A stretch of DNA of 64,000 nt from a bacterium. GTDB lineage: Bacteria; Hydrothermota; Tepidihabitantia; SM23-42. The notes under the pieces are model-generated. The model was not told the DNA's origin, did not search any database, and saw only the letters and a program-made list of their open reading frames with translations. Where the stretch lies: positions 107,956 to 171,955 of the forward strand of contig JBARXC010000151.1 of the NCBI GenBank assembly GCA_049647125.1, in the 5' to 3' direction. The position numbers and the translations under genes were made by a program. Positions 2,118 to 46,083 of this stretch are shown here, piece by piece (position 1 is the stretch's first letter; each line of letters begins with the position of its first letter).

Positions 2118-2881
2118 ATATTCTCCTTGAAGTTTAATAGAAACGGTAAGTATCCAACAGGATCAACTGATTTTTGGCGAAATCTTACTTCATAATGCAA
2201 ATGCGGAGACGTCGATTTACCGGTTGAACCAATCGTCCCAATGACCTTACCGCCGGCAACCCGGTCATTGGGTCTTACAGCAACTGAGTTCAAGTGTCCG
2301 TAAAACGTCGAGTAATTAACGTTGTGGTCAACAATCACATAGTTGCCGAACGCTGCATCCCAACCTACTGCTTTGACAACCCCGGAAGCTGCGGCGACTA
2401 CCGGTGAAAAACGAGGGGCGGCAATATCGATGCCAGTATGTTCAAGACTGAAACTCCTTGAGATTCTGCCGTGCGTGGGTAATAGCGCCGGGATATTCCC
2501 TTCGTTATTTGATACCATTTCTATCTTGCGCGAATAATCGTGGCTCACTTTGTCCAGCTCGGGTTCAACCTCAGCTGGGGTTTCTTCAATACCCAGCATT
2601 AGCTTTATTTTCTTGTTGTGCATTTCAGTACGCTCAAGGTTTTCCTTAATCTCCTGAAGTTTAGCAAATTCCCGCTCTATTTCTGCATTACGACGTTTAA
2701 GGATAACCGTCTCCAGCGCTCGATAATACACTCTTGAATAATTGATCGTAACATATCCGAGAATAACAACTACAATGAAAACAGTAGCAATTACTATCTT
2801 CAGGCATTTTTTTGTAATGAAAAGGTACTTGGTTCTACCCGATTCAGTAGATGTCAAGACAACTGAATAACCCTTTTTCAT
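2114..2881 (-). CDS. M23 family metallopeptidase with N-terminal TM and coiled-coil
   Basis: HTGIDIAAP (HxxxD) and GSTGKSTSPHLHYEV (HxH) zinc-binding motifs. Hydrophobic segment near the N-terminus. Confidence 0.85.
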   Translation of the reverse strand: MKKGYSVVLTSTESGRTKYLFITKKCLKIVIATVFIVVVILGYVTINYSRVYYRALETVILKRRNAEIEREFAKLQEIKENLERTEMHNKKIKLMLGIEETPAEVEPELDKVSHDYSRKIEMVSNNEGNIPALLPTHGRISRSFSLEHTGIDIAAPRFSPVVAAASGVVKAVGWDAAFGNYVIVDHNVNYSTFYGHLNSVAVRPNDRVAGGKVIGTIGSTGKSTSPHLHYEVRFRQKSVDPVGYLPFLLNFKENI

Positions 2882-2883
2882 GA

Positions 2884-3897
2884 CTAGGACAATCCTTTCT
2901 CACACACCGAGAGCAATAATTTGATAGTACCTTCAACATCGCCAAGATCGCACATTTCATTTGTGGAATGAATGTACCTTGTCGGTATCGAGAGAACACC
3001 GCTCAAGACGCCCTCTTTGATAATCTGGACAACTGCCGCATCAGTAGTACCCCTTTCAAGAATTTCGAGTTGATATGCAGTATCTGTTTCCTTTGCATAG
3101 GCAACAAGCTTGTTTTTGACGATCGGGCTGGCAAGAAACATGGCATCCTTTACTTTTATAGCCGGTCCTTTACCAAGACCAACGTCCATTTTACGACACT
3201 CTGGCGTATCGCCGGTAACAGTAACATCAACTGCAATCGCATAATCAGGTGCAATTGCGTAGGCACCTGTCCGGGCGCCTCTTAAGCCCACTTCTTCCTG
3301 AACTGAAAAGACAAAGTACAGATCATCTTTGTTTTCTTTGAGTAGCTTCATAGTCTCGATAAGACAATAGCAACCAATGCGGTCATCGAGTGCTTTTGAT
3401 GTCATTCGATTATTTATGATAACTGCTTGTTGATAAAACGATGCAATATCACCAATACTAACCTTATCTTCGGCCTCTTTTTTTTCTTGTGCACTGATAT
3501 CAATAAATAGGTTGTCAATGCGCGGCGGCTTTGGTGTCTCTGGCTTTGTTTCAACACCAATGAAACCCATCGTGCCATTTTCAAATATGATACGCTGGTT
3601 CACTATGCGTTCAAGCGATAAGCCGCCGATATTAGTGAACCTCAAAAAACCTTTCTTATCGATATGCGTAACAATGAGTCCTATTTCATCCATGTGTGCG
3701 CAGAACATTATCCTGGTATTTTTTTCCTTTTTGACACCGTCTTTAGATTTAGCCGGGACATATGCTATTAGGTTGCCGAGTCGATCTACTTCCATTCTCT
3801 GACAGCTATTTCCAATCTCAGACTCGATCATTTTTCTAATCTTATCTTCCCGCCCTGATGGTCCGTATGCATTGCAGAGTTTTTTTGCTAATTCCAT
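2884..3897 (-). CDS. M42 family aminopeptidase (FrvX/endoglucanase-like), paralog 2
   Basis: CAHMDEIGL, ALDDRIGC and QEEVGLRGA motifs typical of M42 peptidases. Confidence 0.85.
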   Translation of the reverse strand: MELAKKLCNAYGPSGREDKIRKMIESEIGNSCQRMEVDRLGNLIAYVPAKSKDGVKKEKNTRIMFCAHMDEIGLIVTHIDKKGFLRFTNIGGLSLERIVNQRIIFENGTMGFIGVETKPETPKPPRIDNLFIDISAQEKKEAEDKVSIGDIASFYQQAVIINNRMTSKALDDRIGCYCLIETMKLLKENKDDLYFVFSVQEEVGLRGARTGAYAIAPDYAIAVDVTVTGDTPECRKMDVGLGKGPAIKVKDAMFLASPIVKNKLVAYAKETDTAYQLEILERGTTDAAVVQIIKEGVLSGVLSIPTRYIHSTNEMCDLGDVEGTIKLLLSVCEKGLS

Positions 3898-4901
3898 AAA
3901 GACTCCTCCTTACGTGCTTTCTCAATACTGACGGCCAATAATTTGATGCCGAGTTCTATGTCTTTCTTGGAAGCGATTGACAATGGTGAATGGATGTATC
4001 TTGCCGGGGTCTGGAGGGCAGCGGTGCGCACGCCTTTTCTGCTAATATGAATAGGACCGGCATCCGTACCGCCAATCATTGGTTTTTTCAACTGATAGGG
4101 GATGTTCTGTTCACGTGCGGTAGCCTGCAGGAGTGATACAAGCTGCTTATCGCATATGATCGAACGGTCAGCCACTGTGATAACTGGACCTTTACGGATC
4201 TGGGGGTATTGAGGGATGTCCTTATCTGAAGGCCATTCACCTGAAGCAGTTGTATCAACGGCAAATGCAATATCAGGACATACCCGAAAGGCAACTATCC
4301 CAGCACCCCGAAGCCCTGCTTCCTCTTGTACAGTAAAGGCACAATGCATCGGCAAGTCAGTGTGTTTGAGTAAGTGAATCAGTATATGGCATCCAATGCG
4401 ATCATCAAATGCTTTGCCAAAAATAGTATCGCCATCTTCGCGATATTTTGTATCAAAAGTGCCCAAATCACCGACTTTTATCAGTTTTTCAGCCTCGTCT
4501 TTTGAGGAAACACCAATATCTATAAAGAGATTCTTGACCTCGGGTAATTTTGTCTTTTCGTCTTCTTTCATTTGATGAATTGGTTTCGTGCCGATCACAC
4601 CGTTGACAGACTTATCACCTATTATTACTCTTTTGGCAAGGATTACTTGTGGTAAAACACCGATCGTAGAGAACTTCAGCAACCCTTTCTTTTCAATACC
4701 AACAATCATAAAACCCACTTCGTCCATATGCGCGGTAAGGAGTATTTTGGGCTTTTTCGCATCTCCTTTTCGAACGATTAAATTACCATAAGGATCTTCA
4801 ATTATTTCATCGACATCTTGTTCTATTTTGGTCCTGATAAACTCCCTAATTTTGCGCTCACCACCGCTCACGCCGACTAATTCGCTCAATTCCTTTAGCA
4901 T
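3888..4901 (-). CDS. M42 family aminopeptidase, paralog 1 (start moved to MLKEL)
   Basis: TAHMDEVGF, FDDRIGCH and VQEEAGLRGA motifs. A consensus promoter lies inside the ORF-track N-terminal extension, so ATG 4901-4899 is preferred. Confidence 0.85.
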   Translation of the reverse strand: MLKELSELVGVSGGERKIREFIRTKIEQDVDEIIEDPYGNLIVRKGDAKKPKILLTAHMDEVGFMIVGIEKKGLLKFSTIGVLPQVILAKRVIIGDKSVNGVIGTKPIHQMKEDEKTKLPEVKNLFIDIGVSSKDEAEKLIKVGDLGTFDTKYREDGDTIFGKAFDDRIGCHILIHLLKHTDLPMHCAFTVQEEAGLRGAGIVAFRVCPDIAFAVDTTASGEWPSDKDIPQYPQIRKGPVITVADRSIICDKQLVSLLQATAREQNIPYQLKKPMIGGTDAGPIHISRKGVRTAALQTPARYIHSPLSIASKKDIELGIKLLAVSIEKARKEESLWN

Positions 4902-4907
4902 AGGCAA

Positions 4908-4935
4908 ATTATATCTAATAACCACTTATTGTCAA
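4908..4935 (-). promoter_or_regulatory. sigma70-type promoter of the M42-M42-M23-SDR-SDR gene string; predicts a leaderless mRNA
   Basis: Minus strand reads TTGACA-16 nt-TATAAT-ttgcct-ATG, so only 6 nt separate the -10 from the ATG. Confidence 0.5.
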
Positions 4936-4948
4936 CACGATAGTCCCC

Positions 4949-4976
4949 TTGACATTTCGTCTCAGCGTGGTAATAT
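4949..4976 (+). promoter_or_regulatory. sigma70-type promoter of the Gly-rich T9SS cargo gene
   Basis: TTGACA-16 nt-TAATAT, followed by aaaagaGGAGGtcatATG. Back-to-back with the 4908-4935 promoter. Confidence 0.4.
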
Positions 4977-4991
4977 AAAAGAGGAGGTCAT

Positions 4992-6110
4992 ATGATCTAT
5001 CTTGCGATATTTTCATTGGTTTTTGGCTATGTTTATGAGGACAACGATAGCCTTATTGTACAAAATGACAGCCTAGTCATTTGTGGCGATCACCAGTACA
5101 ATATCAAGGTCCACATCTCTAATGCGGGCAAACTCAAAGTAACGCGATGGAGCGCAGCAGCCGATTCTTTTGGTAAACTGAACATCAATGCTCCGGTCTC
5201 CATCATTGAGGATTCTTCATCAATAATCGGCTCTGAACTCGGTTATTTTGGCGCGTATATGAATAGCCATGCTTGGGGTTATGGCCCTGGCGGTGGCGGT
5301 GCTGGCGGTGTTGGCGGCGGTGCTGGCGGCGGCGGCGCTTATGGTGGTAATGGCGGTGCCGGCGGTGATATTTACCCTGGTTCTGGAGGGAATGCCTATG
5401 GTGATCCACAAGATACCTTGATTGATATAGGTTCTGGTGGTGGTGCAGGTCGTTTGAGCGCGCTCAATGGTGCTGGTGGAGATGGCGGCGCTGAGATTTC
5501 CTTGAGGGCTCAGTATATGCTCTTGGATTCATCATATATTTTAACAAATGGACAGCGAGGTCATGACGGTTCACTAGAAGCAGGCGGCGGCGGCGCAGGC
5601 GGTGGTGTAATGTTCTGGGCAGACAGCATGGTCATAAACTATGTGGCAATCACAGCCAATGGAGGAAATGGCGGCGACGGTTCATTTGGCGGTGGCGGCG
5701 GCGCAGGCGGTGGTCGTATAAAGCTATTCTACACCAATTCTCTCGATACTACTCATCTAAGTATGTCAGCCCAGGGCGGTAATCCAGGCACTGGCACCAT
5801 TGGTAACCCAGAACCCGGTTCTCCAGGTAGCATACATATTGCCCAGATCGTCGGCATTGAGGAAATTGCAAGCGGCTTAGAGCCAAGGTTTTTTCTCCAA
5901 TCTCATATCGTAAGGTATCAAGCCATAATGCATGTAGCTGAACCACCCGTCGTTCTCCATCTTTATGATGCAACAGGCTGTCTTGTTAAGTCATTCCGAC
6001 TTGAAAAAACCACTGAATGCCTCAAACTCAGGGATCTGGCACAGGGTGTTTATTTCTTGAAAGTAGGGTTAAAGAACAATAGGGTTGAAAAAATAATCCT
6101 CTTGAAATAG
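4992..6110 (+). CDS. secreted glycine-rich protein with T9SS C-terminal sorting domain
   Basis: GGAGG RBS and hydrophobic N-terminus. Several poly-Gly/GGxGG blocks alternate with beta-strand-like segments. C-terminus ...LHLYDATGCLVKSF...AQGVYFLKV...KIILLK matches the Por-secretion-tail pattern. Confidence 0.7.
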   Translation: MIYLAIFSLVFGYVYEDNDSLIVQNDSLVICGDHQYNIKVHISNAGKLKVTRWSAAADSFGKLNINAPVSIIEDSSSIIGSELGYFGAYMNSHAWGYGPGGGGAGGVGGGAGGGGAYGGNGGAGGDIYPGSGGNAYGDPQDTLIDIGSGGGAGRLSALNGAGGDGGAEISLRAQYMLLDSSYILTNGQRGHDGSLEAGGGGAGGGVMFWADSMVINYVAITANGGNGGDGSFGGGGGAGGGRIKLFYTNSLDTTHLSMSAQGGNPGTGTIGNPEPGSPGSIHIAQIVGIEEIASGLEPRFFLQSHIVRYQAIMHVAEPPVVLHLYDATGCLVKSFRLEKTTECLKLRDLAQGVYFLKVGLKNNRVEKIILLK

Positions 6111-8670: not shown

Positions 8671-9453
8671 ATGAAAGTAGGTTTTCTTCAGTTTAATCCA
8701 GTCTTCGGTGACAAAAACAAAAACCTTGCCGCCGTAGAAAAATTGCTTGAAGGCATCGATGCTGATCTCATTGTCCTGCCTGAACTATTCAACACTGGAT
8801 ATACCTTCCTCAATAAAGCAGAGCTAACTGACCTCAGCGAACCGGCAACTGGTCCATTATATGATTTTATGTTAAAATTAGCACGCAAATATAAATGTGC
8901 TTTTGCCTATGGCTTTGCTGAAAAGGATAATGATCTTCTCTACGATTCCATGGCATTGGTATCACCTGATGGACTCATTGGAGTTTATCGTAAAATCCAT
9001 CTCTTTTTTGAAGAGAAGAAATTCTTTCAACCTGGAGATACGGGTTTTCACGTATTTGAATACAAGAATGTCAAACTGGGCATGCTCATATGCTTTGACT
9101 GGATCTACCCTGAGGCAATGAGAACGCTTGCTGTAAAAGGGGCACAAATCATTCTCCATCCAGCAAATCTGGTGACACCTTATTGCCCCGACGCAATGAT
9201 AACACGAGCCCTTGAAAATCGCGTTTTTATTATAATGGCTAACCGTTGTGGTGAAGAAAAAAGGAATGGAAAAATGAATAAATTTATTGGCCAAAGTGAA
9301 GTAGTTTCACCACAGGGAGAAATACTGGTCAGGGTAGAACAACAAGAGTGTACAAAGATTGTAAATATTGACCCTGCCTTAGCATTAGACAAAAAGTTCA
9401 ACCAGTACAACGATCTTCTCGTTGATCGAAGAGAAGACCTTTATTTCAAATAA
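8671..9453 (+). CDS. carbon-nitrogen hydrolase (nitrilase superfamily)
   Basis: Glu-Lys-Cys triad contexts PELFNTGY, YRKIHLF and CFDWIYPE. GGAGG RBS. Confidence 0.85.
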   Translation: MKVGFLQFNPVFGDKNKNLAAVEKLLEGIDADLIVLPELFNTGYTFLNKAELTDLSEPATGPLYDFMLKLARKYKCAFAYGFAEKDNDLLYDSMALVSPDGLIGVYRKIHLFFEEKKFFQPGDTGFHVFEYKNVKLGMLICFDWIYPEAMRTLAVKGAQIILHPANLVTPYCPDAMITRALENRVFIIMANRCGEEKRNGKMNKFIGQSEVVSPQGEILVRVEQQECTKIVNIDPALALDKKFNQYNDLLVDRREDLYFK

Positions 9454-9494
9454 GCGTTTGTACCTGTCCAATATCCAATGAAAAACATCTCTAT

Positions 9495-11276
9495 TTATTG
9501 ATTATCAATTAAATATCGGAGTCGTCTTATAAAATCCGGGTTGACATTATAACCCAGTTCTTTCGACCTATTTACATCCTCCAAAGCGTTATAATACTCA
9601 CCGGTGACAAAATAGGTAATAGCCCGATTATAATAGGCTTTTGCATAATTTGAATCAAGACGCACAGCATGCGTAAAATCACTGATCGCCTGATCGCTCT
9701 CCCCTAGCCTACCATACATCATACCCCGGTTATTATAGGCTTTTGCATAGCTTGGATCAATACGCACGGCCTGGGTAAAATCATGGACCGCCTTTTTGAA
9801 TTCACCTACCCGACCATAGATCAAACCCCGATTATTATATGCCTTAGCATACTCAGGTTTGTATCCAATTGCCTTTGAGTAATCGGCTATTGCTTTACCA
9901 TAGTCTTTGCGCGCATCATATGCGTTCCCACGGTTATAGTACGCGGTGGCAAAACCCGGATCCAATTTTAGTGCCTGAATAAAATCACTTACTGCCGCAT
10001 CATATTGTTTAATTTCATAAAAAGCAAGACCCCTTCCATTGTAGGCAACCGAACTGGGATAGTTCGACAGTGCATCCTGCCACAAAGACATGTCATCTTT
10101 CCACACTTTGCATCGCTGCCAGGTCAGGATAGAGAAAATACCCAGTACTGCGATCATTATCAACAACAAAAAATGCTTTTTAAATCCCGCATGTATATTT
10201 TTATACAGGTAATAAAAACCTGCTGCGACTATAAATAATATCCCTATCGAGGGAATGTACGTATAACGATCTGCGGCAATGGCATCACCGGCAAGCGGTA
10301 TTATCCCAATGACGGTTACTATATTGAGTAAGAAAAAAGCGCTGCCAAAGGTAAGCACCCTGGAATGCTTACGCGCAAAGACTACAAACAGTATAAATCC
10401 CAAGACTATGACCGGTGAAACGTAGAATATTATAGGTAGTGCATTACCAGACAACTCAGGGTATGGATAAAGAGCCGACAGTTTTACCGGCAGCACGAGT
10501 TTGAGCAGATAAAAACAGATATTACGACAGGCGATGAAAATCGTATTAGGGAAAGTAACTAAGGGTTCAACCCGACGCGCGATAGAAGGGAATTGAGCAA
10601 ACACTGCAAGCAGACCAAAGACCAGAGCGATCAAGAAATAGGGTATTTTCTCAAAGAGTAGTTTTTTATTGAACCGACGCTTCAAATAAAAATCAAGAAG
10701 CAATACAACAAACGGCAGGGTAACTGCCATGCCCTTTGATAAAGCCGATAGAATAAACATGATTATTGAAATACTATAATCCCTTACTCTTTTGGTCTTC
10801 TGGTAAAGCAAGTAAAAGATCAGGGCGCTTAAGAAGAATAAAGAAAAGAGAACATCTTTACGTTCGGTGACCCATGCAACAGATTCCACACGCAAAGGAT
10901 GGAGACCAAATAATAAGACGGTTATCAAAGATATCCCGATATTCCTGGTAAGCAGGAATATCAAGAAAAAGACCAGCAAACAGTTAATAATATGAATGAT
11001 GAGATTCGTCATGTGGTAAATACGTGGATTGAGTTCTGCTACCTGGTATTCAATGGCAAATGATAGGAGGGTAAGCGGGATATATGTCGATATATAATAG
11101 GATGTGAAGAAATGTGCCATATTATGCCATGACAGTTCTCTTATTCTCATATTCTCGGTAACCAGTATATCATCATCCCAATGGGTGAAACCATTTCTGA
11201 GTGATGGTATGAAAGCAATGAATGAAATAAGCGAAATTAGAACAATCGAAAGGATAATCTTTTTCTTTTGTGACAT
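9495..11276 (-). CDS. TMTC-like GT-C membrane protein (protein O-mannosyltransferase-like, DUF1736-type) with C-terminal TPR repeats
   Basis: N-terminal motif FTHWDDDILVTEN...HMTNLIIHIIN...FGLHPLRVESVAWVTERKDVL, about 10 TM segments, then five or more canonical TPRs (AYYNRGNAY... repeats). Confidence 0.7.
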   Translation of the reverse strand: MSQKKKIILSIVLISLISFIAFIPSLRNGFTHWDDDILVTENMRIRELSWHNMAHFFTSYYISTYIPLTLLSFAIEYQVAELNPRIYHMTNLIIHIINCLLVFFLIFLLTRNIGISLITVLLFGLHPLRVESVAWVTERKDVLFSLFFLSALIFYLLYQKTKRVRDYSISIIMFILSALSKGMAVTLPFVVLLLDFYLKRRFNKKLLFEKIPYFLIALVFGLLAVFAQFPSIARRVEPLVTFPNTIFIACRNICFYLLKLVLPVKLSALYPYPELSGNALPIIFYVSPVIVLGFILFVVFARKHSRVLTFGSAFFLLNIVTVIGIIPLAGDAIAADRYTYIPSIGILFIVAAGFYYLYKNIHAGFKKHFLLLIMIAVLGIFSILTWQRCKVWKDDMSLWQDALSNYPSSVAYNGRGLAFYEIKQYDAAVSDFIQALKLDPGFATAYYNRGNAYDARKDYGKAIADYSKAIGYKPEYAKAYNNRGLIYGRVGEFKKAVHDFTQAVRIDPSYAKAYNNRGMMYGRLGESDQAISDFTHAVRLDSNYAKAYYNRAITYFVTGEYYNALEDVNRSKELGYNVNPDFIRRLRYLIDNQ

Positions 11277-11279
11277 ATG

Positions 11280-12203
11280 CTATTTCTGACGGGCAGGTTC
11301 GAGCAACGATTTAGCTACTTTTAGTCCGGTCTTTAGTGTATAGTCCTGCACCTTAACATTAGTATGGTAACCTGAAGTCTTTGTCGTGCGCTGTCTAACG
11401 ACGATTACGTCAACCTCACCAGTTTTCTTACGTTCGACAACGAGTTTATCAAATGATCGCTTGCCAAATTTCTCAAGTAAGTTGAAGCTATGTTTGGCAA
11501 TCAGCACAACGTAAAAATAAGGGTATGGACGACCCTTGACTGAGTTTATCGAAATCTGTCCTTGTAATCCGATAAAATCCTTGGGTGCGTCTTTAAACCT
11601 AACCAAGAGTCGCGTATCGTTCGGGAACGAACCCTCTTTAGTCTCGCCTATTTCCAAATAGGGTATTGCCTGAATATTAGGATCACCTTTAATCAATGAG
11701 GAGCTCAGCATCCGCTTTACAATACCTGCCTTAATATCCAATGCTTGCGGCATCCAGGCAGTTTTGCGACCGCTAAGTGCCAACCCACCAAATAGTATGA
11801 TGGCATTTACCAGGGTCGCCAGGAACCCGAAGGGTAGATTGATGAGTAAAGGCAAGATGGGCATGCCAAAACAAATCCCAAAGATAAAAAGGACGAGTGC
11901 TACGACCAAACAACCGGCATTCTTGCTGCGGAATTTCTTTATGCGCTGACACTGCTGTAATACCCGGTCGACTTTTGCCGGTGTTACCTCTTGCCAAATC
12001 AATTTCTTCGCGCTAATCCGCTTTATTGATATACCTTTTAGCAAATTGAAGATAAGGCAGGCAATAATAAATGGCATACCGGCAAGTATATTCCTTGTGG
12101 TCATTTGAAACAAGAAACCAACGCCGATTAAAAGGACCGACATAAAAGTCCGCAAGCGCGTACTTATTTTGTTAAATATAAGGTATGTCTTATGCTCGGT
12201 CAT
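11280..12203 (-). CDS. membrane protein of unknown function (about 4 TM plus C-terminal soluble domain)
   Basis: Start set at MTEHK (ATG 12203-12201, AAGGA upstream), overlapping the rSAM stop by 14 nt. Stop lies 3 nt before the next gene. No motif recognised. Confidence 0.6.
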   Translation of the reverse strand: MTEHKTYLIFNKISTRLRTFMSVLLIGVGFLFQMTTRNILAGMPFIIACLIFNLLKGISIKRISAKKLIWQEVTPAKVDRVLQQCQRIKKFRSKNAGCLVVALVLFIFGICFGMPILPLLINLPFGFLATLVNAIILFGGLALSGRKTAWMPQALDIKAGIVKRMLSSSLIKGDPNIQAIPYLEIGETKEGSFPNDTRLLVRFKDAPKDFIGLQGQISINSVKGRPYPYFYVVLIAKHSFNLLEKFGKRSFDKLVVERKKTGEVDVIVVRQRTTKTSGYHTNVKVQDYTLKTGLKVAKSLLEPARQK

Positions 12204-13551
12204 GGAGTTCCTTTTTACCGCAAGCTGCCCAGTACAGAGGACATGCACCCTTGCAAATATCAAACTCAAGACATCCATGACACTCTTCCGGTGCATATTC
12301 AATATTCTTGAAATAACTCAGCATAGGCAATTGCCATATGTCCTGAAAACTTTGTTTTAAAAGTGAAGCAACAGGCCATCGCCAAGACGAACACGGTATG
12401 ATATTACCCATCGGATCAAGACTGAGCAACCCAGTAATCGCGGCACATGACTTATTCCCAAAACCATGCGATATTGGGTTGAATTTGCACATCGGCACTG
12501 GTGAATACCAGAGAAACTTGATACCCTCGTTGTCTGCCCGGCGTTTCAGGTTGAGCACATGATCACCGATTTCTGAATACGATACCCAGATGTCGCTTCT
12601 ATTGCGCGCCGTACCACACGGGATAATCAAATTCATTGATAGCCGGTTAAGACCCATACTCTTTACCAGTAGCAGGATATCCTCTAACTGATTCAAATTG
12701 TTCCTCGAAACCGTGGTATTTGTATGTACTGGAATACCAGCCTCTTGTAGCAGCTTGACGCCTTTAATAGTTGCCTCGAATGACCCGGTAATACCGGTTA
12801 TGTTATCGTGGATATTTTGATTTGGTCCTTCAATGCTGACCTGTCCACTTGACAAACCGACGCTCTTCAACTCGGCAACCAAATTCTTGTTAAGAAGCGT
12901 ACCATTAGTTATGATATTAGTCCACATGCCAATTTTTGAGGCATATTCAACAAGCACACTGATATCCCGTCGCAACAAAGGTTCGCCGCCCGTGAAACTA
13001 ACTGAGGGAACATGCGCTTCTTTAAATATCTTGAACAGAATCTTTTTCATATCACTTGTGTTCAGTTCGTTGTAGTTTTTGTCGCCGACATAACAAAAAT
13101 CACATTTTAGATTACATCGATAGGTTACCGCGATTTCTGAAAGTACCGGGTATTCAGTAAATGCACCATTGAATTCATAGTATGATATCGCCTCACGCTG
13201 CTCATTCTCACGCAAACAACCGCTCACCGCTGCCCTGAGGTCACAGAAGAAATAGTGAAGCTCATGTCTTTTCTCTTCACTATCACCGACGAACGCGAGA
13301 AATTCTTCTATGGAATGACCTTTGAAAAGAAAATTTAATATACTAACCCCGGCATCATTCAGTTTGTAAGCCTGATTGGGAATCAATATCAAAAGCCGGT
13401 CGATCTCACGCACGTACACATAGGGCTTTATTTTCTCTACAAACTCGTTAATCCAGCTAATGTCAAAAGGCGTATTCGTAAATCGTATATCGTGTTCGTG
13501 ATTTTTTATATTTGAAGTTTGAAACTTGGTTCTTGGATCTTGAAACTTCAT
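12190..13551 (-). CDS. radical SAM/SPASM enzyme with N-terminal PqqD-like RiPP-recognition element (peptide/protein maturase candidate)
   Basis: CNLKCDFC (CxxxCxxC) at 13116-13093. SPASM signature C-x13-GNIIPC and CHGCLEFDICKGAC (Cx2Cx5Cx3C) at 12282-12241. N-terminal VYVREIDRLLILIPNQAYKLNDAGVSILNFLFKGHSIEEF resembles PqqD/RRE. ATG 13551 lies 2 nt after the upstream stop, with GGGGGAG upstream. Confidence 0.85.
   Translation of the reverse strand: MKFQDPRTKFQTSNIKNHEHDIRFTNTPFDISWINEFVEKIKPYVYVREIDRLLILIPNQAYKLNDAGVSILNFLFKGHSIEEFLAFVGDSEEKRHELHYFFCDLRAAVSGCLRENEQREAISYYEFNGAFTEYPVLSEIAVTYRCNLKCDFCYVGDKNYNELNTSDMKKILFKIFKEAHVPSVSFTGGEPLLRRDISVLVEYASKIGMWTNIITNGTLLNKNLVAELKSVGLSSGQVSIEGPNQNIHDNITGITGSFEATIKGVKLLQEAGIPVHTNTTVSRNNLNQLEDILLLVKSMGLNRLSMNLIIPCGTARNRSDIWVSYSEIGDHVLNLKRRADNEGIKFLWYSPVPMCKFNPISHGFGNKSCAAITGLLSLDPMGNIIPCSSWRWPVASLLKQSFQDIWQLPMLSYFKNIEYAPEECHGCLEFDICKGACPLYWAACGKKELHDRA
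13471..13548. repeat. simple-sequence spacer-type element, copy 2 (here inside the 5' end of the rSAM ORF)
   Basis: cgtattcgtaaatcgtatatcgtgttcgtgatttt...tttgaagtttgaaacttggttcttggatcttgaaactt. Same architecture and orientation as 153-210. Confidence 0.55.
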
Positions 13552-13553
13552 TC

Positions 13554-15080
13554 TCAATGCGCTCCCCCACTCACGCATGCCGAGTGACAAGCTGAATGAC
13601 ACGCCGAGTGGCAAGCCGAATGACACGCTGAATGACACGCCGAGTGGCAGGCATCATGACAAGCAGTATGGACATAGCAAGCACTGTGACACGCGTCTGA
13701 TGTCACAAAGGCTGAATAACTCTTTATCGGCTCTGCGTAGGCAACAAAGGCAGATTCGGTTTCATTGAAATACCCTTGCCGAGAAAATCCTCGACCTGAC
13801 AGGTAATTATAGTACTCAGCTTTACTGTATTCAGAATCAATCTTTGGCGAATGGGCTCCTATTTTCTCTTCGTAGTATAGCTTTGTTGCCTTGATATCAC
13901 AATCCCATGATTTGACTGATATTTTTTCAACGATCTGACTTATTAAAGATTTCAGAGTTGCTTGATTTAAGGTGCCGTCTGATTTCACGGCTTGAACAAA
14001 GGCGGTTTCATAATAGCGCAGACCAGCTTGTCTTTTGAGTACCCTGATTTTCAAAGGCTGGCGAGATGTAATCTTTATCAAACCGTTATCCTGCAATTTG
14101 AAAGCCAGTATCGTTAAAACCTTATTTACCGGATAATCCAAAAGTAATGCGGCTTCAATCAAATCAAGTTTGGCAACCTTACCAGACTTGCGAAAAGTGG
14201 CGACCTCGATCTTTGGTGGCACCCAATCAGCCCTGAGCCACTTGAGACTGGCGACATCACTGTATGCACCCTTTATCTGCTTTGCCTTTTTATTATTGAA
14301 GAGGATATACGGCACGACAGAAAGCACCATCCAGAGAAGCTCAAACGGGAAGGTAAACCTCTTCTTCCTCTCAGGTGTGATCTCAACGTTCTCAGGTTTG
14401 ATTTCAATAGTCCCGAATTTCTCAGTAGTGAAATATTCAGCCGGTACATACTGCTGGATCATCATACGCTCTTCTGTATCTAAATTCTCCTTGTATATGC
14501 GAACTGTGAAGAAGTGGTCACCCTGGTATTTCTGACCAAAGTACGATAACAAGTAGTTTTCATTCATAAACTTCTCAGTTTTAAAACCGTAATCATCTGG
14601 ATTGACTTCCTTGCCGGGCACGGTTACTGGATAGTAGACACAGACTGTATAGTGTTCAAGTGGCTCATCCCATTGGGCTGGTGCCCAATGGAACACGACC
14701 AGGTCACCAAATTCGCTTGTCGTCTTGGCAAGGTTGCCGCTTTGACCGAGGTCCCCACCAAAATGGAAAATATACGTGATCGCACCGGGACCAAATCTCT
14801 TGCCGCTTCCAAGGATGATATCGTATTTATTACCGAGGTCTTTTATCTCAAGTGGATACTTGTTACCGTACTCATCGACTGCATAGGCATCATCAAAATC
14901 AAAATACGGGTCTACTGTCTTTTCCTGAAAATAAAACCCGCTCATCGTACCAGAGAGCACGTTCCAACGTACCTTGTAAACGAAATCTGCCCGACCATCC
15001 TGCCATAATGAAACGTCGACCTCAACCCAGCGCAGATCAGTAGATAATGAGATAAGGGATAATATTAAAATACTAATCAT
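13554..15080 (-). CDS. DUF2207-like single-pass membrane protein with C-terminal (Cys-His-Ser-Ala)n repeat tail
   Basis: Signal/anchor MISILILSLISLS. N-domain VEVDVSLWQDGRADFVYKVRWNV..., resembling DUF2207. One TM (FELLWMVLSVVPYILF). Cytoplasmic region with LDLIEAALLLDYPVNKVLTILAFKLQDNGLIKI. Tail is CHSA-CYVHTA-CHDA-(CHSA)x6-CVSGGAH. Confidence 0.7.
   Translation of the reverse strand: MISILILSLISLSTDLRWVEVDVSLWQDGRADFVYKVRWNVLSGTMSGFYFQEKTVDPYFDFDDAYAVDEYGNKYPLEIKDLGNKYDIILGSGKRFGPGAITYIFHFGGDLGQSGNLAKTTSEFGDLVVFHWAPAQWDEPLEHYTVCVYYPVTVPGKEVNPDDYGFKTEKFMNENYLLSYFGQKYQGDHFFTVRIYKENLDTEERMMIQQYVPAEYFTTEKFGTIEIKPENVEITPERKKRFTFPFELLWMVLSVVPYILFNNKKAKQIKGAYSDVASLKWLRADWVPPKIEVATFRKSGKVAKLDLIEAALLLDYPVNKVLTILAFKLQDNGLIKITSRQPLKIRVLKRQAGLRYYETAFVQAVKSDGTLNQATLKSLISQIVEKISVKSWDCDIKATKLYYEEKIGAHSPKIDSEYSKAEYYNYLSGRGFSRQGYFNETESAFVAYAEPIKSYSAFVTSDACHSACYVHTACHDACHSACHSACHSACHSACHSACHSACVSGGAH
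13575..13700 (-). repeat. in-frame 12-nt-period coding repeat encoding CHSA units
   Basis: Decoded codon by codon: 10 Cys at 4-residue spacing (one 6-residue unit). Synonymous codons vary between units. A 23-nt exact copy (13591-13613 = 13627-13649) shows a 36-nt higher-order duplication. Confidence 0.9.
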
Positions 15081-15124
15081 ATTTTAATGCAGTATCGTCC
15101 CTTTGGAACTCGCAAATTCAAGGA

Positions 15125-15514
15125 TCATTCTTTTGATGCTTCGATGCGTGCTCTCAAGAGATCGGCCTGAGCGGCAATAAAAGAGGCGTATGCCTCTTTT
15201 GCTTCTGACCACTTGGTTTCATCAGGAAATGAGTTAACAATTCCATGCCACACAACCTTGTATACTTTTTCAAGGACATCTTTGCTCGCTCCTTTGCCAC
15301 TGAATTCGAACTGCGCAATTACCGGTACCGGTTGAAAAACCGGGCTCGGTCCAGCCACGATTTCGGTCTGCGCACCAAGAAAAACAACGCCCATCTCCTC
15401 GATCACGTCGAGGTGGACCTTGATTGCATTGAGCACTGAAGCGATTGAGAAATCCGCCGTGGAAAATTTGATTTGCAAGATTTTGTCCTTGATTTCACCA
15501 TAAGGTAAGTTCAT
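15125..15514 (-). CDS. hypothetical 129-aa protein (first gene of the rSAM operon)
   Basis: GGAGG RBS 5 nt upstream of the ATG, with its own promoter. No recognisable motif. Confidence 0.6.
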   Translation of the reverse strand: MNLPYGEIKDKILQIKFSTADFSIASVLNAIKVHLDVIEEMGVVFLGAQTEIVAGPSPVFQPVPVIAQFEFSGKGASKDVLEKVYKVVWHGIVNSFPDETKWSEAKEAYASFIAAQADLLRARIEASKE

Positions 15515-15533
15515 GCATACCTCCTTTTCATCT

Positions 15534-15561
15534 ATTTTATATAATTTTCAAGGTAAGTCAA
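15534..15561 (-). promoter_or_regulatory. sigma70-type promoter of the 15514-to-9495 operon
   Basis: Minus strand reads TTGACT-16 nt-TAAAAT-agatgaaaaGGAGGtatgcATG. Confidence 0.45.
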
Positions 15562-15630
15562 TTAGACGATTTTCATCAAGTGAGTGGATTAAATCTAAAC
15601 AGGCTGACCGAGAACTCAAAAAATGGAGTA

Positions 15631-15646
15631 GCAGACCTTGGTCTGC
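15631..15646. repeat. 16-nt palindrome GCAGACCTTGGTCTGC (copy 1 of 2)
   Basis: Identical 16-mer at 50355-50370. Both are intergenic and both are preceded by gtag(t)g. Confidence 0.55.
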
Positions 15647-15840
15647 GCTAAATAACTAATGAGATTTCGGAAGCTTTTATCTGCTTATAAATGCCTAAAG
15701 GCAGGATTCCGGCATTCTCGATCAACCTGTAAACATGTTACATTAGAGTTAACATTAAGGACGTTTTTGAGAATAGAGTTTTCCGGTGCCGAGCCTCAAT
15801 GTAAAGTGTTTAAATTTGACCCCATTTCCGTACCGAGTCT

Positions 15841-17703
15841 TTAGTACGCTACTATCTTCCTGGTATTGGTGTTCTTTTTATCCTGTATAAAATAAGCACC
15901 GCTTGCTGGAGCGGTCCAGTAAAGCTCAGGAGTTTTTATCTCATGAACCTGACGGCCAAGTATGTCATAGATGTATATTTCAGGTTTTGCATCAAAGGTT
16001 GTAATATAGAAAATACGCGGGGCAACCTGTTTCACGGCCATTTCACCAAGGTGCAGGTCACGGGTGAAAACATCAACTATACCCATGGGTCTTAGTCTGA
16101 TCTGCTTCAATGCTTCAACGCTGTCGCTGGCATTATCTTTCACGACAAGACGTACCTCATACGTACCAGGAGCAAGACCCACAGTATTCCAGTAATCGAG
16201 TGTATCTCTGCGCACTTCAATATATTGCTCATTACCTATTGGTATCCACGTAGAATCGCCGAGCAACCTGTAGGAAAGCCTGTAAAAATCAAAGTCAAGT
16301 GGATGGTAAGGACCTGCATCAATCCAGGCAGAACCAATAATACCCACTGTATCGTCGGTATTTGCATTACTCGGAGCTGTTACCGCGGCAACAAAGACTA
16401 TGGATGTATCAGAGACTACCGGGTCTTCTGGAAATTGAGTATTAATAAGTAAGAGCATTGATGAACCTGTCACCCAGATATTACCCCAGGGCATAGCGCA
16501 ATAACCAAGAAAACATATCCCCCTCTGTTTTGTAATCACGTCAGCAGAAATACTCGACAGGAAAACCACAACCATTGAATTATAACTTGCTTCAATATGA
16601 CCGCCACTGCCGTCACAAAAAGCGCTTTGAATCAGAGTATAGCTATTACCAAAACCGCACAACTCGCCGAAAATAGAACTCGTGAGTTCCACATATGACG
16701 TATCATCCGGATATAGGTTCCATGTCTGAACCAGTGTATTTATCAGATGATAGTTTCTATCTGGTACGGGTAAGGTATAATCCTCATACAATAGACCATT
16801 TACCAAACCTGAAACAGTGAAAGAATCGACTCCTTCAAACATGAGCCCGGTCACACGTAGCTCTGAATCATTGATAGTGGCATCTGAACCGCGAAGCGGT
16901 ATTGCCGCCCACATGCAATCGGTTGAACTGTCGATTTCCACATGATAACCAATACCGCTTACATTACTCAGGGTCGAATCAAAATAAAACCCGTATACGG
17001 TATCACCATTGGGAAACGTAAAATCGATGACCGATGAATCAGGGAAAAAATACCAAGTCAGAAAATTATCAACATTTTTAAACTGCGCCGAGCAATCGTC
17101 AGTAAACAACCATTCACCGGTTATACCGACATTGTCAAGATATACAGTAGCGTTTTCTGCTACTCCGGCAGTTGTCCAATCCTGATTAACTACATTATCC
17201 ATAATAAATGAACTGGTACCTTGAATGCTCACGCTGAACGGATAACCACTAAAACTGGTTTCAGAATTCGTAATCGAAAAGTGTGCTGTGTCAGTCACAA
17301 CTATTAGATGATGGTATATATAGTGTTGGATGAAGTTAAGGGTACTTGAATCAACTATTGTCTGGCCTTGATTAGCAGTGATAATATTACCATCAAGATT
17401 GAAATCTGCGCTTTTTATACTCAAAACACCGTCATTTATAACGATGATATCTCCATCATTATAAAAATAGCCGCTTATATTCAAAGTCTCGGCAGGTTCG
17501 TCACCGACAATAATATCATCACGGCTGAATTCTATTTCCATATCCTTCAAGTATAAAAGACTACTTCCAGAACATATCCCGTGTTCTATATGTGCATCTT
17601 GGCTTACAATGGGTTGATTATAATGACTCCTCATTGTTTCCATTGCCCAATCGAGTTTCCCCTGGTCAACATTGAATAACTGTATCAATAAAAAGAATAA
17701 CAT
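15841..17703 (-). CDS. secreted protein (beta-helix-like) with T9SS C-terminal sorting domain
   Basis: Hydrophobic N-terminus and GGGAGG RBS. C-terminus ...EIYIYDILGRQVHEIK...ASGAYFIQDKKNTNTRKIVAY matches the Por-secretion-tail pattern. Confidence 0.7.
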   Translation of the reverse strand: MLFFLLIQLFNVDQGKLDWAMETMRSHYNQPIVSQDAHIEHGICSGSSLLYLKDMEIEFSRDDIIVGDEPAETLNISGYFYNDGDIIVINDGVLSIKSADFNLDGNIITANQGQTIVDSSTLNFIQHYIYHHLIVVTDTAHFSITNSETSFSGYPFSVSIQGTSSFIMDNVVNQDWTTAGVAENATVYLDNVGITGEWLFTDDCSAQFKNVDNFLTWYFFPDSSVIDFTFPNGDTVYGFYFDSTLSNVSGIGYHVEIDSSTDCMWAAIPLRGSDATINDSELRVTGLMFEGVDSFTVSGLVNGLLYEDYTLPVPDRNYHLINTLVQTWNLYPDDTSYVELTSSIFGELCGFGNSYTLIQSAFCDGSGGHIEASYNSMVVVFLSSISADVITKQRGICFLGYCAMPWGNIWVTGSSMLLLINTQFPEDPVVSDTSIVFVAAVTAPSNANTDDTVGIIGSAWIDAGPYHPLDFDFYRLSYRLLGDSTWIPIGNEQYIEVRRDTLDYWNTVGLAPGTYEVRLVVKDNASDSVEALKQIRLRPMGIVDVFTRDLHLGEMAVKQVAPRIFYITTFDAKPEIYIYDILGRQVHEIKTPELYWTAPASGAYFIQDKKNTNTRKIVAY

Positions 17704-19051: not shown

Positions 19052-22000
19052 CTAAAAATTTATGTTTGTCCAAATATTGAGCCCAACCCTTCTTGTGTCC
19101 TGATCACTGTTTATGTCATCGCTTTTCGAGTAATCGAAATTGGCACCGCCGGTTATGGACGAGGAGAAATTATAAGACATCCCGACTGTTGAACTCAAGG
19201 TGCTCGTATTGGTCGCGGGGTTTAAGAGGTCGTTATAATAGTTAGTGCTTCGGTTATAATTAAGCGTCAAGTTTACTGATAGGTTAGAGGAAAATTTTAT
19301 CCCTTTGAGGAGTGGTATATTTATACCCTTTGGCGCACTAAAAGTATAGGCAAAACTTGCTGAGCCACCCCGTGTAATCATCTTTGACTCCACGGCCATG
19401 GTGTCCGCATAATAATCTCTGCTATTTGTCTCTGAATAGTTAGCCTCCAGGGTCGTTGATATCCCTTTGATCCAACTTGCTTGCCAGCTTGCCACAGGAG
19501 ATAAATTCAAGGTCTTAGAATCTGAAACCAAGTCACTTGCTGAGTCAACAACCACATTGTAGCGTTTTTCAAATGTCTGGCTGAAATTTGTCAGAATGGA
19601 TGAGTTGCGACACCATTTCTTCAAAAAAGGAAGGGATTCGAGCTTCATAAGGCGGACACTCAGGTTCGGGTACGACATGTTATCTGTTCTGGTCTGTGCG
19701 CCACCATAATTGAAAGTTCGGTTCACAGTACCAGTATAACCACCATTAGCACTTAAGAACTTGTAATTGAACCCAGACGATAACCCATAGTTGTCAACAA
19801 CCCCCCGACCAGGAAAACTTCCTTGGGCAATATCGTCAGGAGGTATCGAATCGATCAACCCCCACTGATAATCAAGGTCAGGGCGTGTTTTTACATTAAG
19901 GTAGTTGGAACTACGCTGTCGTGAGTATCTGAATTGCACGTTTTGTATGTAACCTACAAATCTTTCAATTTGTCTGGCTATCCACCCAGGCGAGCCAGCA
20001 ACATAGAGCGTATCCTTAGTCTCGTCTCTCAATCTTGTAAATAGTCTCACAATACTGCCCACTTTTACAGCACCGTCAACACCATAAGTCCCACTATTGC
20101 TTACATTACGCAGATCCTGGTCCTGCCTGATCTCAAAACGAAAATCTTCATTATAAGATGAGTTGAATGTAAACCGCGGTGTGACGATTTTAAGATCTGG
20201 AGAGAACGACGTATTGAAATTCTGGTTTCTACTTACTTCTTCACCGTATCGCTTACTCGCAAAAACTGAATCGCGGGTTTGAGCAAAGTTATAATTAGCG
20301 TTGATAATAGAGTAGGGTGAATAGGCAACCGAGAAAGAAGGCGTCAAGATTTTTCGATGCTGGGTACCGCCGATAGTCTGCTCAAAAGAATCAACAAGGC
20401 TTGAACGATAGTACGCTTTCACTGAATTATCAGTGTAGATGGAGTTGAAACTAATACTCTTCGGTAGCAGATAAAATTTCTGTTTGAGCACTGTGAAGCT
20501 CAGATTTGGGGCGAGTGTGTAAGAACCCCTGAAATTCTTGATGTCTGATGTATCAGCGCTAAGAGCAGACCGCGAATAAACCTGGGTTTGATCATGGTCA
20601 AATGTGATTCGGTCAATTGTATTTTTCATAAACCAGTTTTTTGATTGTGACTTGGAAAAACCAACTGTATATGAACGCATTAGAATCTTCGACTTTTGTT
20701 CTTCTCGATCCTCCGCGGTAATCTCAACATCATCAGAATAATATGAGAATCTTGGTTCTGAGATGTTTTTTCGGAAGCTCATGCCAACCGGTATTTTGAA
20801 GTGCCAATCCAAAGGTAGGAACTTATCGAGCGAGATATTTCCACTTACTGAGTAACCTCGACCAGCGCTCGCCGTTGAGATGCCCTTGGACTCAGACAAC
20901 CTTTTGAAACGACCGTTTGATTCATCATAAGCGAAGTTCAATGATGCGAAGTCAGCAAGTATGAGTGAACCATTTCCACGAAAGATCCTGCCAACTTCCG
21001 ATTTTGGTGATTTCAACTTTATATCATTGAACCATATTGTATCGGTCAGTGGCGTGACAAACTGATTGCTAATTCTTACTTCGAAATACCGGTTATTGGA
21101 CAATGAAGGGTTACCAACAAGCGTATGAGTAGAATCGCTGACCGTATCAGCATCTGGATCTCTATCCCTCTTCAGGTCGATAAAACTCTGCATAGAAATT
21201 TTGAAGAGTCGGTAATTGTTAATACCCAACTCACCATTATTGTATTCAGTAGTGTACTCATAAAAGTTCAGGCTATCGCTGCCCAATCTCAATGAAATAA
21301 GAGGGTTTGTATTGTGTGCATTCAAGTAAAAAGTCAGTGTATCATAGGCACGATAATCCTCATTTTCATCAGTTCTACGATGGGCAACGCAGCTAATCCC
21401 CTGAGGGATATTCACAACCATGAATTCCAGACCGCCCTCAGTCTTGGTCTGACCAAACTGATCATACTCCTCATGGTAGGGTGATCTGTAATATGAATGA
21501 GTTTTGGTGTTTACCGGGGTAAGCGTAAAAACCGCACCAGGCGGCGGTAACTTACCGCCAACAAAACCGTGGTTCTTCCATCTGCTGCCCGTAGCACTCA
21601 ATTTGTATATCATCAGGGTCTCGGTACTGGTAAAACCATCAAACCAAATCCTAACGTATTTAATATCGTGCCAATCTGGTTGACCGAACAATGTATCCAT
21701 TTCTGGAGAATCTTTAATTGACACCCGGAACATTTTCCAGCCATTAGTCAAACCAGCGTTTTTTATGTAGCGTGTTGAAGTTGTGTCGTCAAGATCTACC
21801 GAATAACTGAAATAACGGTTCTTTGTGTTCAAATTGCCATCGCGATCAAGGTCTTCTGTATCCCATAATGCGTTACCCTCAGTACCGTTTGTGCCACCGG
21901 TATAGTCAGAGATTTGGTAATCATCATTACCATCATCAAGCGCACCCGGCACATAATCATCATCATCGCCGTACACATCGTCCAAACCAGTATCCTCGCT

Positions 22001-46009: not shown

Positions 46010-46083
46010 TGGGCGAAACCCGACTTGAACGGGTGACCTTCTGCTTGTAAGGCAGACGCTCTCGCCAACTGAGCTATTCGCCC
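46010..46083 (-). tRNA. tRNA-Val (anticodon UAC)
   Basis: Folds as a cloverleaf: acceptor GGGCGAA/UUCGCCC, D stem GCUC/GAGC, anticodon stem UCUGC/GCAGA with loop CUUACAA, T stem ACCCG/CGGGU. No encoded CCA. Confidence 0.9.

Follow-up and report, generated by a model that had tools for sequence, protein, structure and literature searches.

A cluster of five minus-strand genes, g1 to g5 (9495-15514), is found in a 64,000-nucleotide stretch of contig JBARXC010000151.1 (assembly GCA_049647125.1), from a bacterium of the Hydrothermota. This stretch is referred to here as the window, and coordinates are positions within it. Two adjacent genes of the cluster, g2 and g3, respectively encode a membrane protein with a periodic Cys/His repeat at its C-terminus and a radical S-adenosylmethionine (SAM)/SPASM enzyme carrying a predicted recognition element (RRE) of the kind used in the maturation of ribosomally synthesised and post-translationally modified peptides (RiPPs). 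We propose that g2 and g3 form the two-gene conserved core of a protein-tail maturation system in which the g2 tail is the substrate of the g3 enzyme, and from comparison of sequences we place the probability of this reading at about 0.7. A preliminary description of the cluster had already suggested that the enzyme acts on a membrane-protein tail and not on a free peptide, and comparative genomics favours that suggestion. The features of the two genes are as follows.

13554-15080, minus strand: g2, a 508-aa DUF2207-like bitopic membrane protein, the proposed substrate
14301-14357, minus strand: transmembrane helix of g2, aa 242-260, from hydropathy
13698-14300, minus strand: conserved predicted-cytoplasmic domain of g2, aa 261-461, with a Tyr-rich linker and the pre-tail motif, from the homologue alignment
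13557-13697, minus strand: C-terminal repeat tail of g2, aa 462-508, from the translation and tail comparison
12190-13551, minus strand: g3, a 453-aa RRE-radical SAM-SPASM enzyme, the proposed maturase
13225-13452, minus strand: RRE-type winged-helix domain of g3, approximately aa 34-109, from the AlphaFold2 model and an orthologue profile
12220-12489, minus strand: SPASM domain of g3, with eight Cys for two auxiliary clusters, from the Cys pattern and Pfam

The pairing of tail and enzyme was surveyed from both directions. Starting from the enzyme, species-representative (GTDB) genomes yielded eight close loci from Candidatus Stahlbacteria, WOR-3 and TA06, and the tail gene lies immediately upstream of the radical SAM gene in all six that have upstream DNA. 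Two further WOR-3 contigs (2.8 Mb and approximately 72 kb) both carry g1-g2-g3-g4 in the same order, and the distant loci L016, L017 and L018 (Promethearchaeota) keep the pair in three of three cases while gene order and neighbours change. The preliminary description had staked its proposal on orthologues of the enzyme lying beside a repeat-tailed gene, and at the loci just listed they do. As a negative control, seven loci from the same scan that carry other radical SAM/SPASM enzymes (at most 28% identity) have no tail. In the opposite direction, a degenerate DNA pattern for the tail (three CHxA units followed by CV) matched 120 metagenome loci, 114 of them with a terminal tail open reading frame (ORF). 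An orthologue of g3 (33-92% identity) is present in 94 of these 114 loci, on the same strand in 92; it is present in 70 of the 74 loci with at least 1.5 kb of downstream DNA, and in all 26 with at least 1.5 kb on both sides. The loci lacking a g3 orthologue number 20, of which 16 have less than 1.5 kb of DNA downstream. The co-occurrence of tail and enzyme is therefore tight and clade-specific, and the conserved core consists of the tail protein and the radical SAM enzyme.

It could still be argued that the adjacency is meaningless, the enzyme having an unrelated housekeeping role and merely sharing an operon with g2. The neighbouring genes are indeed housekeeping genes, and the enzyme is unusually conserved for a RiPP maturase, with more than 120 clusters at 61% identity or above in WOR-3 relatives. 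Chance adjacency is nevertheless very improbable, given that the pair persists in several bacterial phyla and in Asgard archaea with all other neighbours changing, that the two genes are joined by a 2-nt start-stop junction, and that the enzyme occurs in every one of the well-flanked tail loci. The reverse concern, that the enzyme often lacks a g2 partner, was suggested by a word-index search that returned far fewer close homologues for g2 than for g3 and g4. This was ruled out, since g2 was present each time at the DNA loci. The shortage of close g2 matches probably stems from the low-complexity tail, through start-codon choice or indexing, and not from biology, because g2 is present in all DNA loci examined. 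The exact g2 protein is absent from the 15-billion-protein collection, in which g1 (MGB3479582.1) and g3 (MGB3479580.1) of the same metagenome-assembled genome (MAG) contig are present.

The arrangement of individual loci varies. In L018, from Promethearchaeota, the orthologous radical SAM enzyme (36% identity) is encoded approximately 1.5 kb upstream of the tail protein P0092, two genes away. A locus with an ACVSSF-type tail (L075:5240-6832, minus strand) has a PAS/HisKA/HATPase histidine kinase between the tail gene and the radical SAM gene, and the order in L080 is radical SAM gene, coiled-coil gene, tail gene. In the small subgroup with ACVSGGFR tails (L022:303-2492, L100:1-1122 and L025), which shows no radical SAM gene in 2.5-5.7 kb downstream, the neighbours are a beta-lactamase-fold protein and an M29 peptidase. 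Loci L022, L100, L046 and L089 were not counted as refutations of the pairing, each having one flank cut or belonging to a clade with the radical SAM gene 1.6-2.9 kb away.

The g2 tail reads D-A-CHSA-CYVHTA-CHDA-(CHSA)x6-CVSGGAH, exactly as first written down. It contains 10 Cys and 10 His, with Cys at period 4, and is the only Cxxx run in the window. It can be parsed as a first D-A-C, nine H-x-A-C units (six of them in the (CHSA)x6 run) and then V-S-G-G-A-H. Synonymous codons differ among the units (TGT/TGC, CAT/CAC, TCG/TCA and GCG/GCT/GCA) and DNA identity between units is only 77-85%, indicating that the repeat is held at the protein level and is no product of recent slippage. The consensus over 177 distinct tails is Ala (94%), Cys (100%), His (97%) and Ser (74%) or Asp (17%). 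The phasing H-x-A-C describes these tails slightly better than C-H-x-A, with His at -3 in 82% against 75% at +1 and Ala at -1 in 90% against 76% at +3. Further, the last Cys of the tail always follows H-x-A, and the H-x-A-C spacing is retained even in irregular units such as C-Y-V-H-T-A-C.

Nearly all of the 95 g2 homologues found by the word-index search end in (ACH[SD])n-ACVSGG-like tails, down to 24-30% identity, so the conservation of the tail among DUF2207-like orthologues on which the preliminary description also relied extends across the family, to approximately 24% identity. Relatives typically have 4-11 Cys in the tail, compared with 10 in g2. A query without the tail retrieved 372 representative clusters; among its 39 longer matches, 20 fit the tail pattern, a 21st (P0378) ends in a two-repeat tail that the pattern missed, and most of the remainder look truncated or frameshifted. 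Complete tail carriers (n = 62) are all at least 507 aa long apart from three short frames of 181, 228 and 282 aa, which are fragment-like. The tail occurs in several bacterial phyla and also on Asgard archaeal proteins, which align to g2 over the tail only. Three proteins of Promethearchaeota, P0092 (L018:8001-9773), P0093 and P0095, have a hybrid tail, ...ACHSACHSACVSCACACACAGGGW, and P0095 ends in a pure (CA)n-GGGR tail. Neither a transmembrane segment nor a signal peptide is detectable by hydropathy in these proteins. Other Cys periodicities may belong to the same theme as the g2 tail.

Periodicity of this kind raises the alternative that the tail is mainly a metal- or iron-sulfur-binding helix stripe, with the radical SAM enzyme linked to it in some other way: by installing one limited change, by using the tail as a cluster or metal donor, or by acting on something else, for instance a lipid or a different region of g2. 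Cys/His at period 4 among small residues puts all Cys on one helix face, SPASM enzymes themselves need three clusters, and Cys/His-rich C-terminal tails are known in metallochaperones. The known metal-binding tails are, however, irregular; in the present family both phase and Ala are conserved at 90-100%. Strict repeats beside radical SAM/SPASM maturases mark substrate motifs in curated families (TIGR04117), the enzyme clade is found only together with the tail, and a predicted RRE-type peptide-binding domain is conserved on the enzyme. We therefore regard a mainly metal-binding tail as unlikely, and favour the reading of the tail as the substrate of g3.

The product of g3 carries the hallmarks of a radical SAM/SPASM enzyme. 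It matches the radical SAM superfamily model PF04055 at 95.7 bits (cutoff 29.5) and has a CxxxCxxC motif at aa 146-153 (C146-x3-C150-x2-C153). The SPASM model PF13186 matches at 27 bits (cutoff 21.5), over a Cys pattern of C369-x12-G382-x4-C387 ... C424-x2-C427-x5-C433-x3-C437 together with C355 and C444; seven of the eight SPASM Cys are invariant in 55 orthologues. Both motifs had been read correctly in the preliminary description but for a trivial miscount (C-x13-G in place of C-x12-G). The ATG at 13551 gives a protein of 453 aa, and the reading frame is open up to 13638.

A candidate N-terminal RRE-type domain on g3 is well supported by predicted structure and only weakly by sequence. The AlphaFold2 model (predicted template modelling score 0.80) places three strands, beta1-beta2-beta3, and then three helices at the N-terminus, with a predicted local distance difference test (pLDDT) value of approximately 77-94. 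A profile of this region from 33 orthologues, compared with the PDB, has the stand-alone lasso-peptide RRE proteins TfuB1 (E-value 0.0024) and TbiB1 (E-value 0.61) among its top matches. By sequence the closest PDB structures to g3 are SkfB (1.1e-18) and PqqE, while the best Foldseek matches to the model are SkfB (3.8e-16) and SuiB (443-449 aligned columns, TM-score 0.63). SuiB provides the only full-length structural alignment of g3 that takes in the N-terminal RRE. The RRE had originally been called PqqD-like: the predicted fold, the SuiB alignment and the TfuB1 match speak in favour of an RRE, but the Pfam PqqD model (PF05402) has no match in g3 at an E-value of 0.01 or below.

Neither g3 nor any of five distant orthologues reaches a curated NCBIfam cutoff. 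The models for haem and sirohaem radical SAM enzymes (TIGR04545, TIGR04546 and TIGR04051/04054/04055) gave 143 bits for AhbD, 115 for AhbC and 116-135 for NirJ against cutoffs of 500-650 (NirJ2, 135/500); the AhbD (cutoff 500) and NirJ matches cover mainly the core. Peptide maturase models scored 81/340 bits/cutoff (PapB, NF047865), 80/268 (HxsC, TIGR03977), 80/400 (rSAM_ACGX, TIGR04340), 118/381 (PqqE, TIGR02109), 98/265 (MftC, TIGR03962), 103/625 (StsB, NF045574) and 109/400 (GeoRSP, TIGR04303). The anSME model TIGR03942 (cutoff 349) falls outside the 25 best families for g3, the 25th of which has 78 bits (5.7e-22), and two g3 orthologues score 69-81 bits to it. Assignment of g3 to AhbD/NirJ or anSME was rejected, as the scores lie far below the curated cutoffs and g3 has an N-terminal domain in addition to those of anSME. 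This is in line with the preliminary description, which had set these non-peptide families apart, and the best fold matches are RRE-bearing peptide maturases. A hidden Markov model of the g3 clade separates full-length members (at least 475 bits) from other radical SAM/SPASM enzymes (at most 184 bits). The radical SAM core of g3 also resembles pVip in PADLOC (84 bits over aa 142-313). An anti-phage defence system was rejected, this generic core similarity being the only PADLOC resemblance and g1, g2, g4 and g5 having none.

The g2 protein has one segment above the hydropathy threshold (aa 242-260), with an equivalent strong transmembrane segment in its homologues, which begin with clear Sec-type signal peptides. 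Given an N-terminal signal peptide, as in the homologues, and a single transmembrane helix, g2 would adopt an N-out/C-in topology with aa 261-508 in the cytoplasm, and the tail would therefore be within reach of a radical SAM enzyme. The DUF2207_N model (PF09972) matches g2 at 14.5 bits (E-value 0.042), below the gathering cutoff of 24.4, but is above that cutoff in the homologues P0015 (26.8) and P0076 (25.4), and the DUF2207 domain is precomputed on P0015, P0076 and P0089. The single transmembrane segment of the preliminary description is thus retained, while its DUF2207-like label applies to g2 by way of homologues and not by the score of g2 itself. The profile of g2 has no match in the PDB. 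Alignment of the predicted cytoplasmic domain revealed the motifs W-x-PPKI-x-V-x-SFRK-x-GKVA ... EAALLL and K-x-WDCD-x-EAT-x-x-YY, with W392 and D395 invariant, and a motif directly before the tail, F-x-x-S-x-A-C-x-x-G/A-C-F, which is a candidate docking site for the RRE.

DUF2207 proteins (PF09972) share with g2 its predicted layout of an exported N-terminal domain, a transmembrane segment and a cytoplasmic part. They are often paired with LemA, whereas no LemA gene is present here, and the Cys/His tail and radical SAM partner are specific to the g2 subfamily. In S. mutans, DUF2207 has been linked to a phenotype in stress and biofilm, the only one reported (PMC10457818; also cited in PMC12631010). 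A mention of DUF2207 in a thiohistidine paper proved irrelevant.

The size and nature of the carrier bear on a further alternative, in which the tail is a RiPP core on an outsized carrier and is cut off to yield a free product (a metallophore or an antimicrobial, for instance) that is released or exported. In favour of this, g3 is an enzyme of RiPP-maturase type, the repeat stands at the extreme C-terminus where RiPP cores sit, the pre-tail motif could be a leader, and the NHLP and Nif11 classes offer examples of long leaders. Yet the carrier is conserved, folded and inserted in the membrane, has an exported domain, shows more conservation than a leader needs, and evolves together with the radical SAM enzyme across phyla. 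In none of the contexts read does a conserved protease, ABC exporter or immunity gene accompany the pair, which further disfavours release of a free peptide; we consider such release quite improbable. The preliminary description had likewise noted no small precursor ORF, and none that is credible was found in 9400-15900, the sole small Cys-rich candidate lying out of frame inside g3. We therefore keep to a system in which the tail would be modified in place, its product inferred to stay tethered to the membrane protein.

Radical SAM targets with Cxxx repeats are already on record as an idea. TIGR04117 ('Syntroph_Cxxx') and PF27846 ('tSAM_targ_Cxxx_rpt') likewise describe a period-4 Cys repeat at a C-terminus with an adjacent radical SAM gene. 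The g2 tail aligns to the repeat part of TIGR04117 (positions 59-97 of 98) at 17.4 bits against a cutoff of 50, its homologues score 7-15 bits, and PF27846 is recorded as weak on several g2 homologues. TIGR04117 describes a protein of approximately 98 residues, whereas the g2-type carrier is a membrane protein of 500-600 residues; a large membrane protein as the carrier is the unusual feature of the present system. The earlier statement that the C-H-S-A repeat matches no family was therefore too strong, although the resemblance stays below threshold. By these model scores the g2 tail is no member of TIGR04117 or PF27846, and g3 is in no curated family. To our knowledge, neither the Cxxx-repeat target system nor any g2/g3-type system has been characterised experimentally.

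The ACGX system has in common with the g2 tail a period-4 Ala-Cys-x-x repeat with a radical SAM/SPASM partner. Its third repeat position is Gly where g2 has His, its substrates are short peptides, and g3 (79.8 bits against a cutoff of 400 for TIGR04340, rSAM_ACGX) is no member of its enzyme family. The thioether-forming RiPP maturases SkfB, CteB (SCIFF), PapB (freyrasin) and AlbA have an RRE, a radical SAM core and a SPASM or twitch domain, the architecture predicted for g3, and CteB (5wgg) is among the matched structures. They are no more than 20% identical to g3, however, and g3 falls far below cutoff with the SkfB and AlbA models. Their substrates are Cys-rich, and in the case of PapB repeated; they are free peptides of 40-60 aa with N-terminal leaders, while the candidate for g3 is the tail of a membrane protein. 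SuiB, which makes a Lys-Trp carbon-carbon link on a short peptide, is 17% identical to g3, and its fold alignment includes the RRE. Precedent for SPASM enzymes that modify or crosslink Cys of folded or full-size proteins comes from anSME and QhpD. The structures of anSME match the g3 model at 3e-12, with an alignment that starts past the RRE-type domain (query residue 144 corresponds to chain residue 13). They differ in that anSME changes one residue, and that the substrates of anSME and QhpD are soluble exported enzymes with no repeat tail.

A mechanism can be outlined from these comparisons. The signal peptide would export the N-terminal domain of g2 and one helix would span the membrane, leaving approximately 245 residues in the cytoplasm. 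The RRE of g3 would then dock on the conserved g2 segment just before the repeats, and g3 would work along the tail one H-x-A-C unit at a time, a 5'-deoxyadenosyl radical abstracting a hydrogen and the adjacent Cys thiol trapping the resulting carbon radical to form a thioether at each unit (Cys being the only fully invariant residue, two auxiliary clusters being present and the nearest structure being a thioether synthase). In NxxC-type beta-thioether peptides the acceptor is followed by two residues and then Cys, a spacing like that of the tail units. A thioether is our tentative choice of bond, held at somewhat less than even odds. The flexible Cys/His tail would thereby become a rigid ladder of small rings on the membrane protein. 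The small soluble g1 and the membrane protein g4 with its alpha/beta domain would be clade-specific helpers or binding partners and not catalysts.

The chemistry may instead centre on His, as a triceptide-like His-x-Ala carbon-carbon cyclophane, from the imidazole to the beta-carbon two residues on, or as a Cys-His link between sulfur and imidazole; the tail would still be the substrate. His (97%) equals Cys in conservation, H-x-A-C is the best phasing of the module, and HxsC-type models are among the better sub-threshold matches, with NF038332 the top match for the archaeal orthologue (106 bits). The HxsC-type scores are nonetheless only 80-106 bits against cutoffs of 268-500, Cys is the sole position invariant at 100%, and the best structural match, SkfB, forms thioethers. 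His-centred chemistry thus seems unlikely. At its most specific, the proposal is of a membrane-tethered polycyclic Cys/His rod on the cytoplasmic end of a DUF2207-like protein, from WOR-3 to Asgard archaea, in which RiPP-type chemistry is used for a permanent part of a membrane protein and the bond is possibly undescribed, for example from the Cys sulfur to the His or Ala of H-x-A-C. This fuller picture is possible but doubtful. Such a rod may serve as a metal-binding or mechanical element.

Several points weigh against the proposal of tail modification by g3. At two loci with ACVSGGFR tails, L022 and L100, no radical SAM gene is present in 2.5-5.7 kb of downstream DNA, the upstream side being cut off. 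The RRE of g3 is weak by sequence (E-value 0.0024), has no match to Pfam PqqD and rests mainly on predicted structure. The N-terminal segment of g2 itself is short and without a charged n-region, and the topology of g2 rests on hydropathy and on the signal peptides of its homologues. The third gene of the cluster is not universal, being g4 in one clade and an unrelated coiled-coil protein in another. The bond type is not fixed by sequence, and since Ser, not Asp, is the commonest variable residue of the repeat, Asp chemistry of the PapB kind is disfavoured. A Cys/His stripe of such strict periodicity could be no more than a metal-binding element. Finally, full-text literature searches returned nothing on this system or on the biochemistry of any member.

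The remaining members of the cluster, and the gene that replaces g4 in the clade with ACVSxF tails, are the following.

15125-15514, minus strand: g1, a 129-aa soluble protein with no recognisable fold, a clade-specific accessory
11280-12203, minus strand: g4, a 307-aa membrane protein with a C-terminal alpha/beta domain, an accessory of the ACVSGG-type clade
9495-11276, minus strand: g5, 593 aa, with 10 transmembrane segments and five tetratricopeptide repeats (TPRs), a neighbour outside the conserved unit
L017:11422-12678, L019:8522-9769, L075:2579-3805 (minus strand) and L080:2885-4165: coiled-coil-like gene of the ACVSxF clade

The preliminary description had treated all five genes as one system. 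This does not hold, as relatives either lack g5 or carry it on the other strand, and g1 and g4 are confined to one clade. In WOR-3 and Stahlbacteria loci g1 lies directly upstream of g2 at 83-97% identity; it is 57-60% identical in L054 and L060, and is found in only six of the 114 metagenome loci. It is a clade-specific accessory confined to WOR-3-like lineages, and has no match in Pfam, NCBIfam, PADLOC or the PDB. The g4 gene lies directly 3' of the radical SAM gene in 49 metagenome loci as well as in L001-L008, L016, L139 and L140; it keeps this position throughout the ACVSGG-type clade, of which it is an accessory. Its protein, first described as having four transmembrane segments and a soluble domain, has four N-terminal helices in the AlphaFold2 model (pLDDT 81) and a C-terminal alpha/beta domain, though hydropathy supports only three transmembrane segments. 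None of its 182 homologues, all unnamed, has a Pfam domain; g4 itself has no Pfam or NCBIfam match, and Foldseek returned nothing below an E-value of 0.001. A YbjN fold, the best match at an E-value of 0.08, was too weak to name.

In the ACVSxF clade the radical SAM gene is followed instead of g4 by a gene for a coiled-coil-like protein of approximately 416 aa with a conserved C-terminal ...W-K/R motif. This protein was rejected as a diverged g4 on the basis of its coiled-coil appearance and an hhalign probability of 0.2. As the third gene differs between clades, the roles given above to g1 and g4 are guesses. The g5 protein has ten hydrophobic segments and five TPRs, the latter clear in Pfam; its N-terminal 400 aa have no Pfam family at an E-value of 10 or below and no PDB sequence match. 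Of the TMTC-like GT-C/TPR assignment first suggested for it, the TPR part stands. The GT-C part (PMT_2, PF13231) was not confirmed, the resemblance being only in the architecture of 10 transmembrane segments and TPRs. The gene is absent after g4 in L006, L007 and L008, and the PMT_2 genes near the L139 and L140 clusters are at other positions or point the opposite way. The g5 gene is a syntenic neighbour and no partner. In L004, from a Stahlbacteria-like MAG, two tandem g5-like paralogues with 10 transmembrane segments and TPRs (2210-4057 and 4126-5910; 36% and 83% identity to g5) follow g4.

The layout of the cluster is as initially described: the ORFs show five minus-strand genes head to tail, with gaps of 44 nt and 2 nt, a 14-nt overlap and a gap of 3 nt. 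Shine-Dalgarno-like sequences precede g1 (AAAGGAGG), g3 (GGGGGAG) and g4. The cluster had been assigned a single promoter:

15534-15561, minus strand: promoter-like site TTGACT-16-TAAAAT, 5' of g1, a consensus match only

This site (15561-15534) matches 10 of 12 consensus positions, the top match within 9200-16000, and sits in a 326-nt intergenic space with the ribosome-binding site AAAGGAGG and then the g1 ATG downstream. Since such matches show no enrichment as a class (24, compared with 17 +/- 4.4 in shuffled sequence), a promoter here is only plausible. Further upstream, a hairpin GCAGAC-CAAG-GTCTGC (15618-15647, minus strand) is followed by a six-T run 7 nt further on. It lies between the promoter-like site and the upstream gene (15841-17703), placed where a terminator separating that gene from the g1-g5 cluster would be; the terminator scan made no call.

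The gene directly upstream of the cluster (15841-17703, minus strand) encodes a 620-aa protein with no Pfam match. Nearby, the minus strand at 19052-24454 encodes a protein of 1800 aa that carries a SprA_N domain (type IX secretion translocon), and in the related contig L140 the cluster has proteins with Por_Secre_tail domains encoded upstream of it. A single tRNA-Val(TAC) at 46010-46083 (minus strand) is the sole match to an RNA family in the window.

In public records the enzyme clade, the tail motif and the accessory genes are without functional annotation, proteins of the family being named only 'hypothetical protein' or 'radical SAM protein'. With few exceptions, RRE-bearing radical SAM/SPASM maturases are known from the production of small ribosomal peptides. 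In many anaerobic bacterial lineages and in Asgard archaea, such machinery is tied to the predicted cytoplasmic tail of a large, conserved envelope protein. Should this tail be modified, the reach of RiPP enzymology would widen to membrane-protein maturation, and the approximately 4-11 identical units of the tail would offer a naturally iterative substrate for studying repeat processing. Modification of the tail would also provide an initial lead to the function of one branch of the widespread and unexplained DUF2207 family.

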